Origin: a virus
Taxonomy: Duplodnaviria > Heunggongvirae > Uroviricota > Caudoviricetes
IMG/VR virus record: IMGVR_UViG_2711768073_000020
Coordinates: 1 to 39,494 of that record
Length of the DNA stretch: 39,494 nucleotides
Strand: one strand, 5' to 3'
Positions 2,623 to 39,001 of the stretch are shown here, one piece after another. The notes beneath the pieces were generated by a model that saw only the letters and a program-made list of their open reading frames with translations, made no database searches and had not been told where the DNA came from. Each line of letters opens with the position of its first letter. Position 1 is the stretch's first letter. The translations under genes and the position numbers were made by a program.

Positions 2623-2849
2623 TTTCTTTCCTCTGTTATGCCATCACCCGCGCTCACCTGGACAGTATGCAGCGGAGACTGAAGAGCCGCAATGCAGGCT
2701 TGTCGTGTTGTGAGGTAAGGAGATTTATTCTTAGTGGGATCTTTGCGTGTTGCCTGAAGACGCCCTGTGCGTATCCAGTTAATGGCAGTCGGTCTGGATA
2801 TCTTGAGAAAATGACAGGCCTCATCGAGTGTGAGGCTGTATGGCTCCAT
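2499..2849 (-). CDS. xis: Excisionase (Xis), about 116 aa from internal ATG at 2849
   Basis: [33 protein letters not shown] helix-turn-helix excisionase-like N-terminus; start ATG overlaps the upstream gene stop (TAATG); 3' end overlaps the int 5' end by about 124 nt as in P22-type int-xis modules. Confidence 0.65.
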
Positions 2850-3154
2850 TATTTCACCTCTTGCTGTGACATTGTTGAAAAATGGATACCAGCTCGTTGC
2901 TGCCAGACGATCCAACCGAGAGTCATATCCCATGCCATGTATTCGTTATTGCCGTTTTTTGCTCTCCGACGATCTACTAAGTCACCGAAACGCTTTTCCA
3001 TGAATAATTCATAAGCTTCGCGTTCATCTGGTTCTACTTCCAGAGATAGGAGTGCGATTTCATAAGCACGGCGCTCAATATCGTCTCGCACGTCAAGGCT
3101 GCTGATACGCTCTTTAATTTCTTTAATCAGTTCTTTGTCGGTAAAAGTGGTCAT
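2849..3154 (-). CDS. Hypothetical early protein (YfdT-like by size and position), 101 aa
   Basis: ORF translationally coupled to neighbours (ATGA overlap with the upstream gene at 3154); no recognisable motif. Confidence 0.5.
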   Translation of the reverse strand: MTTFTDKELIKEIKERISSLDVRDDIERRAYEIALLSLEVEPDEREAYELFMEKRFGDLVDRRRAKNGNNEYMAWDMTLGWIVWQQRAGIHFSTMSQQEVK

Positions 3155-5060: not shown

Positions 5061-5423
5061 TTAATGACCTGCTGCGCGGAGTTTTCCGTCAGGTTCACCG
5101 GCAAGAGTCAGTAATTGTCCCTGGTCTTCCTGCAGAATAGTCAGGCGACCACCGCGATTGACATACATCGGCGTTTCGGTGGTGTCTTCTTCGGAAATTT
5201 TCCCGCGGTTAGTCGGGCGAACATATGAGAGTTTGTGTTTGATTTTCACACGGTTCTCATCAAATGGTTCGATTTCCAGGTTGAGTGAGACCTTACCTTT
5301 GGTTTTCGTGTTCATCACACCGGAAGCGACTTCACTGAGAACTGCGCCGATTTTGGTTTCAAATACGCCGCCGTCCAGCTCCCCGATAAATGCCTGCACA
5401 TCAGTACTGCGTTCGCTAGCCAT
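5061..5423 (-). CDS. YfdP-like prophage protein, 120 aa (start at internal ATG 5423)
   Basis: GAGGAG RBS 8 nt upstream of the ATG at 5421-5423; the longer ORF-track version (to 5741) has a compositionally odd N-terminal extension and is probably not translated. Confidence 0.55.
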   Translation of the reverse strand: MASERSTDVQAFIGELDGGVFETKIGAVLSEVASGVMNTKTKGKVSLNLEIEPFDENRVKIKHKLSYVRPTNRGKISEEDTTETPMYVNRGGRLTILQEDQGQLLTLAGEPDGKLRAAGH

Positions 5424-5860
5424 TTTGCTGCTCCTCATCATATCGACCCTGCAAGGCCGATTAGTTTCTCCACAAAACAGAGAAGAACACCTGCGGTAGC
5501 AGCCGCCCGGATGGATTGGGTTATGAGCCCGTCGTCCGGTGATGCTCTTCTCTGTTTTGTAAAAAGGACGGTACCAGCCGGAAGCAAGGGTACAAACTGG
5601 TACCGCCAGGACTACACACAGCATAAAGTTGTGGTGCCGGGTGCCTCCCGGTGCCTGGCGAAGGTTGCACACCAGACGGGTGGGTATCCACAGAAGGTCG
5701 ACTGTCAGCCTCAACCTTAACCCGCGTGCGCTGAGCCGCATTCACCACAACGCTAAGGATTCTCTTTGGTTGAAAATACTTAGCTGTTATGTGCCTGTCT
5801 TTTCACCACTTCAGGCTCGGTGGTATCCTTTTAAGCCCGTATACATAAAAGGAAAATCAA

Positions 5861-6106
5861 ATGACTTTTGATGAAAAAGAACTTGATAATGCAATTAATA
5901 AAATCATCGTAACGTCGCTCTTTTCCTGTCTCAGCGACACTCAGCAGAAACAGTTCTACGAATCGGCTTTCAACATGATCGAGCGTTGTTGTTTCTGCGA
6001 TGCCGACGAGTTACCTGAAAAAATCAGGAAACAGTTGGCTGATGCTCTTCGAGTGCGACTTTCTGACCAATTTTCTGAAATGTGCTCTCCGAATTTGGAC
6101 AAATAG
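5861..6106 (+). CDS. Hypothetical small protein, 81 aa
   Basis: AAGGA RBS 7 nt upstream of ATG; Cys-containing (CCFCDADE); converges on and overlaps a minus-strand ORF. Confidence 0.4.
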   Translation: MTFDEKELDNAINKIIVTSLFSCLSDTQQKQFYESAFNMIERCCFCDADELPEKIRKQLADALRVRLSDQFSEMCSPNLDK

Positions 6107-6299
6107 AAAAAGGCCATTTCCATTCAGGGTCTGATGGAAATACTTCAGCCTGTTCCAAAGCACGGCGTAAAGAGAACACAACTCCAGCCATAATCTGATG
6201 TTTCCCATTGGTCCAGCTATCGCCGCTCTGATCTACAGGGGCGGCTATGTCGTATGACCAAACGACTTCACAGTTATTGTTTAAAATCTGGACTTTCAT
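6024..6299 (-). CDS. Hypothetical protein, first gene of the leftward early operon (91 aa from ATG 6299; 98 aa if from 6320)
   Basis: AGGTG RBS 6 nt before the ATG at 6297-6299; lies downstream of the candidate PL; no arginine-rich N-like motif. Confidence 0.4.
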   Translation of the reverse strand: MKVQILNNNCEVVWSYDIAAPVDQSGDSWTNGKHQIMAGVVFSLRRALEQAEVFPSDPEWKWPFSICPNSESTFQKIGQKVALEEHQPTVS

Positions 6300-6425
6300 T
6301 TCATACACCTGCTTTAACATGAGTGCCTAGTGGCACAACATGACTCAACGAATCATCCTGGACTTCATATGCCCCAGGCGGCTACTTCGTGGGCGTCCTG
6401 CCTGTTCGTTGTTTCGCTTGGGTAC

Positions 6426-6453
6426 ATTATGTATCTCAAAGGTACATTGTCAA
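6426..6453 (-). promoter_or_regulatory. Candidate PL promoter with repressor half-sites (minus strand: TTGACA-16 nt-CATAAT)
   Basis: Minus-strand perfect -35 TTGACA (plus 6448-6453) and -10 CATAAT (plus 6426-6431); two direct copies of AATGTACC overlap the promoter, the same GTAC-core half-site as in OR. Confidence 0.45.
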
Positions 6454-6454
6454 G

Positions 6455-6480
6455 TATAAAAAAACCTGCCGAAGCAGGTT
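6455..6480 (-). terminator. Rho-independent terminator of the cI transcript
   Basis: Minus strand: stem AACCTGC / GCAGGTT (6463-6480) with 4-nt loop, followed by TTTTTTTA; begins 13 nt after the cI stop codon. Confidence 0.6.
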
Positions 6481-6492
6481 CATAAACATTGA

Positions 6493-7167
6493 TTAGGCTT
6501 TGATTTTGTATCTTCTTGGTTTTCCTGAGAAAATCACTGTACCAATTATAGAGCAATTACCGTTGATCTTAATGTAAGGCTCAGGCCAGTTTGGGTTTAA
6601 CGCTTTGAGATAACGCTGTGTCCCATCTTCTATCAACCTTTTGAAGGTGGTTTCGCCTGTATCGTGCATCAATGCAATAACGTCGTCACCGTGGCAGGCA
6701 GGTACTTCAGGATCGACAAAAATCATGTCTCCCGGGCGGTACTCATCAATCATTGAATCACCTATCACCCGCAAGATATAAGTCATTTCCCCACAGGGTA
6801 CAGGGCAGGGATACGTTTCTGCTGTGCTCAAATCAACCTCAGAATATCCAACTTCTTTCCATGCTCCGGCCTGTACCCATGATATGACAGGGACTAATGT
6901 GATTTGTTTATTAGTGATTGAAACATCAGGTTTTTTTGTGATGTTCGTTGTCTGGTGTTCTTGATCGAGCCATCCGACAGGCAGGTCGAAACATTTTTCG
7001 ATGTGTCGTGCCATGCTGTCACCGATATTTTTAGTAGCACCATCTCCCATAAACCTGCTGGTCTGGGTTGGCTCGCGATCAATCATAGTGGCAAAGGAAG
7101 AATTCCCGCCAACACCATCTCTCAGTTTTCTGGCGTTAGACCGCCGGATGTCATGGATTGTTTTCAT
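6493..7167 (-). CDS. cI: CI-type prophage repressor (HTH plus S24 LexA-like peptidase domain), 224 aa
   Basis: C-terminal self-cleavage domain with Ser motif (VIGDSMIDEYRPGDMIFVDP) and a downstream Lys (TTFKRL); divergent from a cro-like gene across an operator-rich 90-bp spacer. Confidence 0.85.
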   Translation of the reverse strand: MKTIHDIRRSNARKLRDGVGGNSSFATMIDREPTQTSRFMGDGATKNIGDSMARHIEKCFDLPVGWLDQEHQTTNITKKPDVSITNKQITLVPVISWVQAGAWKEVGYSEVDLSTAETYPCPVPCGEMTYILRVIGDSMIDEYRPGDMIFVDPEVPACHGDDVIALMHDTGETTFKRLIEDGTQRYLKALNPNWPEPYIKINGNCSIIGTVIFSGKPRRYKIKA

Positions 7168-7182
7168 AACGAAATTAAAACC

Positions 7183-7252
7183 CTTGTACCGTTAAGGTAC
7201 AAGTATCTTGAAGGTTCATTTCAATCATGTAATATGTACACCGGAGGTACAT
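7183..7252. promoter_or_regulatory. OR region: two palindromic operators plus candidate PR (-35 TTGAAG 7208-7213, -10 TAATAT 7230-7235)
   Basis: Perfect palindrome CTTGTACC-GTTAA-GGTACAAG (7183-7203) and ATGTACA-CCGGAG-GTACAT (7234-7252) between divergent cI and cro; GGAGG RBS at 7243-7247 before the cro ATG. Confidence 0.55.
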
Positions 7253-21074: not shown

Positions 21075-22808
21075 ATGAGCCGGAAATCTTACCCCAACGT
21101 AAATGCTGCCAATCAGTATGCCCGTGATGTCGTGCGCGGAAAGATTGTGGCCTGCCAGTTTGTGATTCAGGCCTGCCAGCGCCATCTTGATGACCTGATG
21201 GCGGAAAAAAGTAAGTCGTTTCGTTACCGCTTCGACAAGGATCTGGCTGAACGGGCCGCCAAATTTATTCAGCTGTTGCCGCACACCAAGGGTGAGTGGG
21301 CATTCAAGAGGATGCCCATCACGCTGGAGCCGTGGCAGCTCTTTGTGATCTGCTGCGCGTTTGGCTGGGTCAATAAAGGCTCCCGGCTGCGCCGCTTCCG
21401 TGAGGTGTATACCGAAATCCCCCGTAAGAACGGCAAATCGGCAATCTCTGCCGGTGTCGCCCTGTATTGTTTTGCCTGTGATAACGAGTTCGGCGCGGAA
21501 GTGTATTCCGGTGCCACGACGGAGAAACAGGCATGGGAAGTCTTTCGTCCGGCAAGACTGATGTGTAAACGCACACCCATGCTGACGGAAGCGTTCGGGA
21601 TTGAGGTTAACGCCTCAAACATGAACCGTCCGGAGGATGGCGCGCGGTTTGAACCGCTGATCGGCAACCCCGGTGATGGTTCATCACCCCACTGTGCCGT
21701 GGTGGATGAATATCACGAGCACGCCACCGATGCGCTTTATACCACAATGCTTACCGGGATGGGGGCGCGACGTCAGCCACTGATGTGGGCCATCACCACC
21801 GCCGGGTACAACATTGAGGGGCCGTGCTACGACAAGCGGCGGGAAGTCATCGAGATGCTCAACGGCTCGGTGCCTAACGATGAACTGTTCGGGATCATCT
21901 ATACCGTTGATGAAGGTGACGACTGGACCGACCCGCAGGTGCTGGAAAAAGCCAATCCAAATATTGGCGTATCGGTTTATCGCGAATTTTTGTTAAGTCA
22001 GCAGCAGCGTGCGAAAAATAACGCCCGTCTGGCAAACGTCTTTAAAACAAAACACCTCAATATCTGGGTGTCGGCACGTTCGGCGTATTTCAACCTGGTG
22101 AGCTGGCAGAGCTGCGAGGATAAATCACTGACCCTTGAGCAGTTCGAGGGGCAGCCGTGCATTCTGGCCTTTGACCTGGCGCGTAAGCTGGATATGAACA
22201 GCATGGCGCGACTTTATACCCGCGAGATTGACGGTAAAACGCATTACTACAGTGTGGTCCCGCGCTTCTGGGTACCGTATGACACGGTGTACAGCGTCGA
22301 GAAAAATGAAGATAGACGGACAGCCGAACGCTTTCAGAAATGGGTGGAAATGGGCGTCCTGACCGTTACCGATGGTGCAGAGGTGGATTATCGCTACATC
22401 CTCGAAGAGGCCAAAGCGGCGAACAAAATCAGCCCGGTCAGTGAGTCACCCATCGACCCCTTCGGGGCGACCGGGCTGTCACATGACCTTGCTGATGAAG
22501 ATCTGAATCCCGTCACTATCGTCCAGAACTTCGCCAATATGTCCGATCCGATGAAAGAGCTGGAAGCAGCGATTGAATCGGGACGCTTTCATCATGACGG
22601 CAATCCCATCATGACCTGGTGTATCGGCAATGTGGTCGGCAAAAACATGCCAGGTAACGATGATTTAGTGAAGCCCGTCAAGGAGCAGGCGGAAAACAAA
22701 ATCGATGGTGCGGTTGCACTGATTATGACGATCGGTCGGGCAATGCTCAAAGAACCTGACGATTTCCTCTCATCTCTTGATCCGGACGATGATCTCTTAA
22801 TTCTATGA
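21075..22808 (+). CDS. Terminase large subunit, 577 aa
   Basis: Size and position after TerS; N-terminal ATPase region with Walker A-like EIPRKNGKS and C-terminal nuclease region. Confidence 0.9.
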
Positions 22809-22966
22809 AATCACTAATTGCTGATGTTATCGGGCTGGCTGGTTTTGGCCTGCTTACGTGCGGGGTTTACCTGCAGTTTGGTATGGCTCCGGCTCTGATT
22901 TTGTCCGGTGCTTTACTGCTGGTGGGCGCACTGGCTATGGTCAGAAGGGGGACGCGTGCTGCTTGA
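22805..22966 (+). CDS. Candidate small two-TM membrane protein (53 aa) between TerL and portal; not in the ORF track
   Basis: [53 protein letters not shown]; ATGA overlap with the TerL stop and stop adjacent to the probable portal start. Confidence 0.35.
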
Positions 22967-24182
22967 TGCTCTGTTCAGAAGTAAATCACTGGAGAATCCT
23001 TCCACCCCGATAACCGGGGATGCCGTTGATACTGATGGGCTGTTCCGGGCTGACGTTTATGTCAGTCCTGAGACTGCGATGAAACTGGCTGCGGTGTATT
23101 CCTGTATCTATGTCCTGTCTTCCAGCCTTGCCCAGATGCCGTTGCATGTTATGCGCAGGCACAAGGGGAAGGTTGAACCCGCACGCGATCATCCTGCGTT
23201 TTATCTGGTTCATGATGAGCCCAATACCTGGCAAACCAGCTACAAATGGCGCGAACTGAAGCAACGTCACATCCTTGGCTGGGGGAATGGGTATACCTGG
23301 GTGAAACGTAATCGTCGCGGTGAAGTCATATCCCTGGATTGCTGTATGCCGTGGGAAACGACGCTGATGAATACTGGTGGCCGATATACCTACGGTTTGT
23401 ACAACGAATATGGGGCGTTTGCGATCAGTCCGGACGATATGATCCACATCCGTGCGCTGGGTAATAATCAGAAGATGGGGCTGAGTCCGATTATGCAACA
23501 TGCCGAAACAATAGGCATGGGGATGAGCGGTCAGAAGTACACAGAAAGCTTCTTCAGCGGTAATGCCCGTCCGGCGGGGATAGTATCCGTTAAAAGCGGA
23601 CTCAATAAGGAAAGCTGGGGCTGGCTTAAAGATCAGTGGCAGAAGGCATCGCAGGCGTTACGCCGCCAGGAAAACAAAACCATGCTGCTGCCAGCCGATC
23701 TGGATTACAAGGCACTGACTGTGTCGCCAGTTGACGCTCAGATCATTGACATGATGAAGCTGAACCGTTCAATGATCGCCGGTATTTTCAATATTCCTGC
23801 GCACATGATTAATGACCTCGAAAAAGCCACCTTCTCCAATATTTCTGCGCAGGCGATTCAGTTTGTCCGCTACACGATGATGCCGTGGGTGACGAACTGG
23901 GAGCAGGAGCTTAACCGTCGCTTGTTTACCCGCGCTGAGTTAGCCGCCGGGTATTACGTCAGGTTCAATCTGACGGGGCTTTTACGCGGAACTCCGCAGG
24001 AGCGCGCGCAATTCTATCACTTCGCTATTACCGATGGATGGATGAGCCGTAATGAGGCCCGCGCATTCGAGGATATGAATCCGGTTGAAGGGCTGGACGA
24101 GATGCTGGTAAGCGTGAATGCTGCTAACCCGGCAGGAGATTTTAAGCCCCCAAAAAACGATGAGGGAAAAACCAATGAATGA
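22956..24182 (+). CDS. Portal protein (HK97 family), ~408 aa from GTG 22956
   Basis: Position after TerL, size and portal-like sequence; the ORF-track start at 22908 gives a W-rich extension overlapping the small membrane ORF, so GTG 22956 (preceded by AAGGGGG) is preferred. Confidence 0.8.
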   Translation: MLLDALFRSKSLENPSTPITGDAVDTDGLFRADVYVSPETAMKLAAVYSCIYVLSSSLAQMPLHVMRRHKGKVEPARDHPAFYLVHDEPNTWQTSYKWRELKQRHILGWGNGYTWVKRNRRGEVISLDCCMPWETTLMNTGGRYTYGLYNEYGAFAISPDDMIHIRALGNNQKMGLSPIMQHAETIGMGMSGQKYTESFFSGNARPAGIVSVKSGLNKESWGWLKDQWQKASQALRRQENKTMLLPADLDYKALTVSPVDAQIIDMMKLNRSMIAGIFNIPAHMINDLEKATFSNISAQAIQFVRYTMMPWVTNWEQELNRRLFTRAELAAGYYVRFNLTGLLRGTPQERAQFYHFAITDGWMSRNEARAFEDMNPVEGLDEMLVSVNAANPAGDFKPPKNDEGKTNE

Positions 24183-24777
24183 CCGTGAAATCCGTTGTTA
24201 CAGCGGTGAGGTGCGTGCTGAGAGGCATGACGATAACCCGGCGCACATTATCGGTTATGGATCGGTGTTTGACTGTCGTTCTGAGCTGATATTCGGTTCA
24301 TTCCGCGAAATCATCCGGCCCGGCGCTTTTGACGATGTGCTTGGTGATGATGTACGCGCACTGTTTAACCACGATCCTAATTTTATTCTTGGGCGTAGTG
24401 CAGCAGGCACGCTGAATCTTTCAGTTGATGAGCGCGGATTACGCTATGACATCCAGGCTCCGGAGACACAGACCATTCGTGATCTGGTGCTGGCCCCGAT
24501 GCAACGTGGAGATATTAACCAGTCATCTTTCGCTTTCCGTGTCGCCCGTGACGGTGAGGAGTGGTATCAGGATGAGGATGGGGTTGTTATTCGCGAGATA
24601 ACCCGCTTTTCCCGTCTGCTGGATGTCAGTCCTGTGACATATCCTGCCTATCAGGAGGCTGACTCGGCTGTTCGCTCCATGAAAGCATGGCAGGAGGCGC
24701 GCAACAGCGGCGCGCTACAGAAAGCCATTAATCAACGTATGGCGCGTGAACGCGTCCTGACCCTTCTTAACGCGTAA
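24175..24777 (+). CDS. Prohead protease (HK97 family), 200 aa
   Basis: MNDREIRCYSGEVRAERHDDNPAHIIGYGSVF...; GAGGG RBS; ATG 24175 overlaps the portal stop. Confidence 0.85.
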   Translation: MNDREIRCYSGEVRAERHDDNPAHIIGYGSVFDCRSELIFGSFREIIRPGAFDDVLGDDVRALFNHDPNFILGRSAAGTLNLSVDERGLRYDIQAPETQTIRDLVLAPMQRGDINQSSFAFRVARDGEEWYQDEDGVVIREITRFSRLLDVSPVTYPAYQEADSAVRSMKAWQEARNSGALQKAINQRMARERVLTLLNA

Positions 24778-24787
24778 AGGAAACATC

Positions 24788-38586: not shown

Positions 38587-39001
38587 GCCATTCAATATCG
38601 GGGGCTGTTGAAGTATCAACACGCATCAGCAGCACACGGTATTTCTTCCATTGGGTGAGAGTTGAAGTTTCTTCATCAGTTGCAATGCCCGCATCAACAG
38701 CATCCTGACGCCAGGATATTTCACTGTCAGCTTTTGCACGAAATGTGGCTTTCATGTTTTCTGCATCTGATATTTTCTGTTCTGGTGAAAGCGGCGGCTC
38801 ATCAACCCATGCAAGGGCCCCTGAAACCATTCCCAGCATTTTTCCTGTTGGCTTATTTCCCCCATTAAATCTGACAGCATCCTCATCGCTGATTTCAATA
38901 CCATCCTGCGGCCATGTCCCCTCCTTGATATAACTTTCGTATAGCGCTGCGTTGTAGATTGCATTTTCGGAAGGGCTGTAAACACTTTTAACTTTATTCA
39001 T
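38558..39001 (-). CDS. Alternative tail fibre assembly protein (Tfa'), inverted orientation, 147 aa
   Basis: Convergent with Tfa, shares C-terminal VDTSTAPDIEWPTPP motif. Confidence 0.7.
   Translation of the reverse strand: MNKVKSVYSPSENAIYNAALYESYIKEGTWPQDGIEISDEDAVRFNGGNKPTGKMLGMVSGALAWVDEPPLSPEQKISDAENMKATFRAKADSEISWRQDAVDAGIATDEETSTLTQWKKYRVLLMRVDTSTAPDIEWPTPPAVQAR

Follow-up and report, generated by a model that had tools for sequence, protein, structure and literature searches.

The 39,494-nucleotide stretch analyzed here (IMG/VR record IMGVR_UViG_2711768073_000020, referred to in full as the window) is, judged by its sequence, essentially Shigella phage SfV, to which it is 99.8% identical over positions 5400 to 5900. 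Between the leftward genes orf33 and yfdP, the minus strand of the window carries, over 5824-5425, an unannotated prophage RNA element related to STnc100 and KilS. This element probably functions as an Hfq-type small RNA (sRNA) that also attenuates the early-left operon in which it lies. A first-pass annotation had drawn attention to repeats within 5440-5860 and had offered three explanations for them: a third repressor-controlled region, a structured small RNA, or a recombination site. The small RNA was the correct choice, but on the minus strand, a point which that annotation had left unstated. The strand, the fold, the homology, the terminator anatomy, and the noncoding nature of the element are results of the present analysis; the association with Hfq is drawn from the literature on homologues.

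The repeats are hairpins of an RNA transcribed from the minus strand and are not repressor sites. The region has a computed fold of -167.3 kcal/mol (z = -5.98) as minus-strand RNA versus -149.6 kcal/mol (z = -2.41) as plus-strand RNA, and its stems hold G.U pairs that can form only in the minus-strand RNA. These two results identify the minus strand as the RNA strand. The previously reported 15-bp perfect inverted repeat is present exactly as described (ACAAAACAGAGAAGA at 5472-5486, with its exact complement at 5546-5560), and with 84% complementarity its arms can be lengthened to 25 nt (5472-5496 and 5536-5560). It is the sole perfect inverted repeat of at least 12 nt with a spacer of at most 100 nt in the whole window. 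None of 200 shuffled sequences contained a 15-mer repeat, and the shuffle mean for 12-mers was 0.195. The GGTACC repeat, reported as 8 bp, is longer than was claimed, with 9 perfect bp (CGGTACCAG at 5569-5577 and CTGGTACCG at 5597-5605), and reaches 11 bp on the minus strand when one G.U pair is counted. Both inverted repeats are real and far above chance expectation. The region was also rightly called GC rich, with 52 to 58% GC over 5400-5800 versus 38 to 49% in the flanks. Folding and covariance analysis across related prophages, which had been suggested as a check, supported the minus-strand fold and revealed pairing that covaries.

The upstream part of the element is a compact core with the following parts.

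5751-5628, minus strand: pseudoknotted core of the STnc100 family, 124 nt (Rfam match and covariation)
5751-5743 with 5636-5628, minus strand: core helix P1, 9 bp, perfect
5740-5737 with 5730-5727, minus strand: core helix P2, UGCG-GCUCAG-CGCA
5724-5720 with 5681-5677, minus strand: core helix P3
5718-5712 with 5667-5661, minus strand: pseudoknot S1, AAGGUUG with CAACCUU, the second strand lying within the loop of S2
5676-5670 with 5660-5654, minus strand: core hairpin S2
5651-5647 with 5641-5637, minus strand: core helix P6, with the loop AGGCA

Judged by E-value, an Rfam scan gave one meaningful match, to STnc100 (RF02076), at 5773-5558 on the minus strand. The match takes in model positions 1-206, the full length of the model, beginning with the closing helix P1 and ending with the hairpin of the 3' terminator. 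Its score of 39.5 bits is lower than the gathering score of 47, with an E-value of 3e-7 in a 481-nt search and 2.6e-5 in a search of the whole window. The 22-mer CACCGGGAGGCACCCGGCACCA and the motif GGUGAAU are identical to the model consensus, and the element shares with STnc100 a P1 helix (yrUGGUG / CACCAyr) that closes a multihelix core ending in CCGGG-AGGCA-CCCGG, an H-type pseudoknot, a 3' terminator, and carriage by a lambdoid prophage. It differs from STnc100 in several respects. The P2 hairpin UGCG-GCUCAG-CGCA stands in place of the canonical CCCCCU..GCGG..AGGGG, and cmscan flags noncanonical pairs there. The canonical STnc100 genes stand alone in the late region, close to Q, stx, and lysis genes, and have a promoter and a terminator of their own, whereas the window element lies in the early-left operon (orf33-yfdP) 3' of pL, has no evident promoter of its own, and has a seed and terminator of the KilS type. 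The window element is a diverged structural homologue of STnc100, and we refer to it and its closest relatives as subfamily B. The other subfamily-B copies score 33 to 41 bits against STnc100, all below the Rfam threshold.

The pseudoknot was found in the present analysis and is absent from the Rfam STnc100 model. It joins the strand 3' of P3 to the loop of hairpin S2, the one located 5' of the invariant CCGGG-AGGCA-CCCGG hairpin. Its two strands differ among relatives while remaining complementary: AAGGCUG/CAGCCUU in phiES15, CAGUUAA/UUAACUG in Qin and Rac, and GACUGACAAA/UUUGUCAGUC in IMG/VR contig L015. About 20 of 26 canonical STnc100 representatives, which are not independent of one another, also show the pseudoknot, formed by strand pairs of many different sequences (Fisher combined p = 1.6e-12). 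More than 200 loci were retrieved from IMG/VR by scanning first for the 22-mer and next for a pattern specific to the subfamily, and among them P1 covaries (CAUG/CAUG, UGUG/CACA, CGUG/CACG, and others). A pattern applied to genome contigs, TGAATGCGGCN{0,1}CAGCGC, was too unspecific; among the matches that were listed and checked, only one from E. coli (L178) was genuine. For the covariation analysis, 16 sequence types were segmented by hand, each segmentation reproducing its sequence exactly; the variable insert was removed, segments were padded with N, and MAFFT introduced no gaps. In this alignment 98.4% of the cells were paired and 21 of the 43 pairs had changed on both sides, a result as high as which was not seen in any of 500 shuffles. 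Slid controls had 32 to 39% of cells paired and 2 to 7 pairs changed on both sides. Within subfamily B the pseudoknot helix had 7 of its 10 pairs changed on both sides, with 99.1% of cells paired. P1 and P6 both covary; P2 is invariant in subfamily B and so is uninformative for covariation.

The downstream part of the element has the anatomy of a released sRNA.

5623-5606, minus strand: single-stranded seed-like segment UGCUGUGUGUAGUCCUGG, 18 nt, between the core and the terminator hairpin
5607-5561, minus strand: Rho-independent terminator, with an 11-bp stem (5607-5597 / 5577-5567), a 19-nt loop, and a U-run at 5565-5561

The seed-like segment and the first three bases of the adjoining stem form a 21-nt run (UGCUGUGUGUAGUCCUGGCGG, 5623-5603) that is identical at 21 of 21 positions to KilS, an sRNA that was predicted from Hfq RIL-seq (RNA interaction by ligation and sequencing) data and verified by northern blotting (PMC8175672). 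KilS is annotated in MG1655 (b4833) upstream of kilR in the Rac prophage and derives from the kilR 5' UTR. The similarity continues through the hairpin and U-tail of the terminator (5623-5561 and KilS nt 35 to 98 agree in 53 of 67 columns), and both RNAs lie in a lambdoid early-left operon. They are arranged differently. KilS of Rac is followed by a subfamily-B core and kilR and has no intact core before it, whereas in the window the KilS-like module lies 3' of the core and is followed by a long hairpin and yfdP. The likeness to DicF is more distant. The Rfam DicF model (RF00039) gave 15.7 bits against a gathering score of 48, with an E-value of 0.9 to 2.1, at 5620-5566. The terminator arm UGGCGGUAyCAGUUU is the only part of the sequence common to both (17 of 19 nt), and a DicF-type sRNA lies beside a subfamily-B core in the early-left-like operon of Qin and Rac. 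However, DicF has another seed, and the order in Qin is sRNA, core, dicB, as opposed to core and then sRNA in the window.

The stem of the terminator is the GGTACC palindrome of the first-pass annotation, followed on its 3' side by CCUUUUUA. The terminator is present in the computed fold and aligns with the terminal 3' hairpin of the STnc100 model. At the same place ST64B and sal3 have the stem GUCGGCGUC / GACGCCGAC and phiES15 has GCCCGC / GCGGGC, in letters unrelated to those of the window, and each of these hairpins leads into a U-run (CUUUUU or longer in ST64B and phiES15). Conservation of a hairpin and U-run built from unrelated stems marks an intrinsic terminator rather than a site bound by protein. 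The seed segment is kept in phiES15 and ST64B despite their differing terminator stems. The E. coli K-12 terminator has an identical stem and a different loop, including the position of the additional GGTACA. That GGTACA, reported as a further repeat of the same type, does exist (5589-5594), but it lies in the hairpin loop and is not kept even in this K-12 copy.

The E. coli K-12 copy, in the e14 prophage, is 91% identical to the window and is annotated as a protein gene, ymfH (b1142). Data published on this copy provide indirect support for the view that the e14-type block yields an Hfq-bound, sRNA-like RNA. In an sRNA score based on RIL-seq, ymfH received 0.113 and DicF 0.103, with an authors' cut-off of 0.1; ymfH was recovered in 81 chimeric fragments representing 3 interactions, and its U-tract value was 6 (PMC8175672, Table S1). 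Its SIC score of 0.667 with 3 interactions means that it was always second in the chimera (PMC8175672, Table S1). The STnc100 relatives PasD1/PasD2 and EcOnc27 are prophage sRNAs of Salmonella and pathogenic E. coli. PasD was found to be Hfq associated by RIL-seq, and EcOnc27 has been described as Hfq binding (bioRxiv 10.64898/2026.05.13.724894; PMC12711010). Zhu, Shabalina and Storz (2026) relate PasD to STnc100 and place it in late-region contexts. Among the papers searched, none describes the e14/SfV element or a core lying 5' of dicB or kilR. Two other published prophage sRNAs were considered and set aside as belonging to other loci: svsR/C0293, at the cI 3' end or near icd, and HnrS, among late genes.

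The genomic context was taken from the SfV annotation and the open reading frame (ORF) map of the window. A leftward string of genes on the minus strand begins with cI (7167-6493) and its terminator (6481-6462) and continues with a pL-like site, orf33 (6320-6024), the RNA region, yfdP (5423-5061), and yfdQ, on to xis and int.

6453-6426, minus strand: pL-like promoter TTGACA-16-CATAAT (promoter scan, 11 of 12 matches), directly 3' of the cI terminator
6410-6426 and 6430-6446, minus strand: operator-like sites over the pL-like promoter (consensus matches)
5560-5472, minus strand: long hairpin, 89 nt, with a 19-bp basal stem that includes the 15-bp repeat and a branched apex

The pL-like promoter is the probable source of the transcript. 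Transcription from it would proceed through orf33, the RNA element, yfdP, and yfdQ to xis and int. With termination at 5561 the product would be a free Hfq-type sRNA of about 200 nt, and, by analogy with DicF, a cut by RNase E in the A/U-rich linker at 5627-5624 could yield a form of about 65 nt. The released sRNA would act in trans via its seed, and the same terminator would attenuate transcription into yfdP-int. The 5' end, the trans targets, the attenuation, and the roles of the long hairpin and the core in this scheme are what we infer from the anatomy of the element.

Polymerases that read through the terminator would transcribe the long hairpin, which begins directly 3' of the terminator U-run and thus lies in read-through RNA before yfdP. 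An alignment fold of eight variants gave a 19-bp stem, in which the G.U pairs at columns 16-74 and 19-71 would be A.C mismatches on the plus strand. ST64B and sal3 show a compensatory change of a G-C pair to A-U in the stem, and G.U pairs have become G-C in the E. coli K-12 and Salmonella copies. The long hairpin, the terminator, and yfdP are kept together in mEp460, Stx2 phages, and cdtI, under another core and seed variant, and in E. coli K-12 the long hairpin accompanies the RNA block beside xisE. With its helix of roughly two turns and its place in read-through RNA, the long hairpin is most likely a processing or stability element of the RNase III type for the downstream mRNA.

If these interpretations are correct, they have several consequences. 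The homologous DNA, which is present in about half of complete E. coli genomes and either carries no annotation or is labeled a hypothetical or frameshifted protein, would warrant reannotation as an RNA gene. Of 5426 complete E. coli genomes, 2785 had a match to the window-type block, 1815 of them covering 80% or more of it, and 4645 contain the dicF-dicB segment. STnc100/PasD, KilS, and DicF would share a modular build, with a pseudoknotted core and exchangeable seeds and terminators. Rfam has a blind spot here, because the early-left core subfamily, which is found beside the cell division inhibitor genes dicB, kilR, and kil, escapes the gathering threshold. A seed identical to that of KilS predicts common targets and possible cross talk of SfV-like and e14-like prophages with Rac. 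The terminator would gate the genes from yfdP through xis and int.

Several results weigh against the reading of the element as an attenuating, Hfq-type sRNA. For this phage the sRNA is a prediction from sequence. The promoter scan found no sigma-70 site on the minus strand just upstream of the core, and the lack of a nearby sigma-70 promoter means that expression in a lysogen would need a leaky pL, spontaneous induction, or an unrecognized promoter. The terminator loop is large, at 19 nt, and the U-run has only five U. Helix P2 is noncanonical, and the STnc100 score is below threshold. The covariation alignment was built by hand with the structure as a guide. Most subfamily-B relatives have the core running straight into an ORF, with no terminator between; a core that is mostly followed in this way suggests a role in cis, which is outside the sRNA model. 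Two candidate promoters were rejected. AAGACA-17-TATTTT (about 5800-5772) overlaps the covarying hairpin H0, which abuts the core, and is absent in ST64B, and TAAAGT after DicF is without a conserved -35 element.

One tentative possibility is that the core is an autonomous, very widespread RNA domain of lambdoid prophages with a job other than base pairing. The partner of such a domain might be an RNase, RNA polymerase, or a protein of host or phage origin, and by binding it the domain might govern the termination, processing, or translation of toxic early-left genes and of late transcripts. The seeds and terminators of KilS, the mEp460 variant, and PasD would then be interchangeable add-ons. 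The core has been found in the dicF-dicB spacer, the kilR leader, e14 ymfH, the early-left leaders of SfV, ST64B, and phiES15, and the STnc100/PasD genes. A subfamily-B core lies directly upstream of dicB (Qin), kilR (Rac), kil (phiES15 and Klebsiella phages), and other small genes. Immediately 5' of the Qin and Rac cores is a DicF or KilS sRNA together with its terminator, and in ST64B, sal3, phiES15, and mEp460 the element lies between the repressor side and the first early-left genes.

A related explanation, which is a serious rival although it is unlikely to be the whole account, is that the element is mainly a cis-acting leader. The core, terminator, and long hairpin would control read-through, processing, stability, or translation of the genes downstream (yfdP and beyond in the window; dicB, kilR, or kil elsewhere), and the released RNA would be a by-product. 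This explanation is compatible with the preferred one. It is favored by the location of the element 3' of the early-left promoter, which is constant in all the phages examined, and by the cores of Qin, Rac, Klebsiella, and many viral contigs, which lie 25 to 40 nt upstream of an ORF with no terminator between and have a closing helix of about 20 bp that extends to just short of the Shine-Dalgarno sequence. Gordon et al. (2017, Table S1) also list an RNase III-dependent position (1649470, "Known? Yes") within the dicF-dicB core. This is weak evidence, given that the counts in the table are very low (26 versus 0). Furthermore, the core in the window leads into a KilS-type seed and terminator, an arrangement typical of a released sRNA; the E. 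coli K-12 copy is sRNA-like in RIL-seq data; and canonical STnc100 members are stand-alone genes. An RNase III site downstream of DicF was considered and not adopted; Ragunathan et al. map the cut upstream of DicF.

Besides the sRNA reading and cis control of the downstream genes, the core might function as a put-like processive antiterminator, binding RNA polymerase in cis so that it reads through 5561 and later terminators in a phage without a recognizable N protein. The position of the core 3' of pL and 5' of a terminator resembles that of HK022 putL (PMC9378689). Like HK022 putL/putR, it is a structured early-left RNA in a lambdoid phage with no evident N protein, with a complex conserved fold; many canonical copies begin a few nucleotides after a strong promoter; and orf33, the first gene of the pL transcript, has no Pfam or functional match. 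However, HK022 put consists of two stem-loops in about 70 nt (PMC9378689), whereas the window has a 124-nt pseudoknotted core with its own terminator. Positions 22000-34000 of HK022, which include its immunity region, contained neither an STnc100 match with an E-value up to 1 nor any core motif, and the idea of a resemblance to HK022 put was given up on these results. The cores of Qin, Rac, and ST64B sit downstream of a terminator, canonical copies precede their own and a convergent terminator with nothing downstream to antiterminate, and the RIL-seq data suggest that termination occurs in E. coli K-12. Antitermination is therefore improbable.

That the region instead codes for protein, either in a YmfH-like ORF on the minus strand or in the 69- or 80-amino-acid ORFs on the plus strand, is very improbable. 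The case for it consists of the annotation of ymfH (103 amino acids) over the homologous block in E. coli K-12 and of ORFs that have been annotated here in some phage records and placed in PHROG families. The PHROG matches, however, do no more than mirror previous ORF calls. The homologous block has 1-nt insertions or deletions between the window and E. coli K-12 and between the window and both ST64B and sal3. The Prokaryotic Genome Annotation Pipeline (PGAP) labels the ORF of the region "frameshifted" in strain 2013C-3342, which is identical to the window, and no ORF across the region matched a Pfam family. Thus, the region is noncoding, and the earlier impression that the long ORFs predicted across it do not look coding was justified. 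The YmfH-type frame is not intact in the window, where it is split so that a 75-amino-acid ORF with a GTG start (5748-5521) remains, or in strain 2013C-3342. Substitutions follow base pairs rather than codons, and ymfH itself is very probably not protein coding. In MG1655 the gene, annotated "putative protein YmfH," occupies 1201069-1201380 (5070-5381 in our locus L353 and 3496-3807 in L004) and overlies the homologue of the RNA block.

A DNA site, either a third set of CI operators suggested by the shared GTAC core of the right (OR) operators or a recombination or cruciform site suggested by the palindromic repeats, is hardly credible: 5440-5860 has no match with two or fewer mismatches to the operator consensus, pairing but not stem letters is kept across relatives, GGTACA is not conserved, G.U pairs that are valid only in minus-strand RNA break the palindromes as DNA, and the integrase gene (1459-2622) adjoins a tRNA (1369-1441), followed by the excisionase gene, at the far end of the operon from the RNA region. 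The consensus, TGTAC-N7-GTACA, was derived from the OR sites at 7185-7201 and 7235-7251, and with up to two mismatches it matched the immunity region only at 6410-6446, 6786-6802, and 7185-7251. The match at 6786-6802 has 2 mismatches and lies within the cI coding sequence, and the window as a whole has 11 matches, with 10.9 expected by chance. Nor is the GGTACC hexamer enriched in the window, with 8 copies versus 5.1 expected and 16 of 100 shuffles reaching 8.

The RNA element predicted to act as an attenuating sRNA is flanked by further structures.

5805-5824, minus strand: leader hairpin H-1 (ACCAC / GUGGU), followed by a conserved A-rich linker at 5785-5804
5752-5784, minus strand: hairpin H0, an inverted repeat with 13-nt arms in the minimum-free-energy fold, abutting core helix P1
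5461-5442, minus strand: small hairpin (computed fold)
5436-5431, minus strand: Shine-Dalgarno sequence GAGGAG of yfdP, 3' of the small hairpin, with the yfdP AUG at 5423

In the place of H0, ST64B has a hairpin of another sequence, GAUAAGAGUU / GAACUCUUAUC, and the Qin, Rac, and Klebsiella copies have an extension of P1 of about 20 bp. At the position of the small hairpin ST64B also has another hairpin, UGGCGG / CCGCCA. The leader is part of a 45-nt block (5784-5829) that is 95.7% identical in Klebsiella phages and also occurs in Rac-SA53. This block precedes the same core in E. coli K-12 e14, sal3, phiES15, and Klebsiella phage ST405-OXA48phi1.2. Across E. coli, Klebsiella, and Cronobacter phages the block (ACCAC/GUGGU plus AAAAGACAGGCAyAUAAC; 5784-5829 in the window, 900-960 in L354, and also in L247 and L004) is about 95% identical, and it always sits a short distance 5' of the core.

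In Qin and Rac an unannotated STnc100-like core fills the spacers between dicF and dicB (L350, 136-300) and between kilS and kilR (L351, about 215-40, minus strand), where its closing helix of about 20 bp stops just short of the Shine-Dalgarno sequence. mEp460 has a third core variant (L352, 1640-1830, minus strand), with the P2 hairpin GCGCA-GGCUGA-UGCGC and the last hairpin CCGG-AGAUCAGCA-CCGG. It has a seed of its own, AGCCACUGCUUUGGCGG, joined to the window-type terminator, long hairpin, and yfdP, an arrangement whose sequence suggests modular exchange of seeds. In ST64B there are 815 nt without an annotated gene between cI and sb37, and an extra terminator-like hairpin, CUGGCGG...CCGCCAG plus UUUUU, lies about 60 nt upstream of the core (L245, about 2840-2900, minus strand). 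The rightward operon of ST64B has an IsrK match of 64.3 bits (L245, 5231-5307, plus strand).

The description of the region as divergent is doubtful. The minus-strand gene orf33 is annotated by both PGAP and the SfV authors, and its homologue in the corresponding position of SfII has diverged to 40.7% amino acid identity; the plus-strand ORF at 5861-6106 has only near-identical copies, of at least 99% identity. The overlapping opposite-strand ORFs at 5861-6106 (plus) and 6024-6320 (minus) parallel ymfI/ymfJ of E. coli K-12 e14, and records disagree as to which of the two is annotated. The 3' end of cI and its terminator (6462-6493) occupy the same position as svsR, an sRNA reported in the NC-SV prophage (PMC12803456). 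Elsewhere in the window, 38607-38796 on the minus strand has a match to the full-length Rfam IS009 model that is below threshold (50 bits versus a gathering score of 117; E-value 1.2e-8). In four IMG/VR contigs (L037, L020, L071, and L051), canonical STnc100-type genes are paired in tandem at a distance of 484 nt, and in the two that were inspected (L037 and L020) each gene of the pair has its own promoter-like sequence and terminator.

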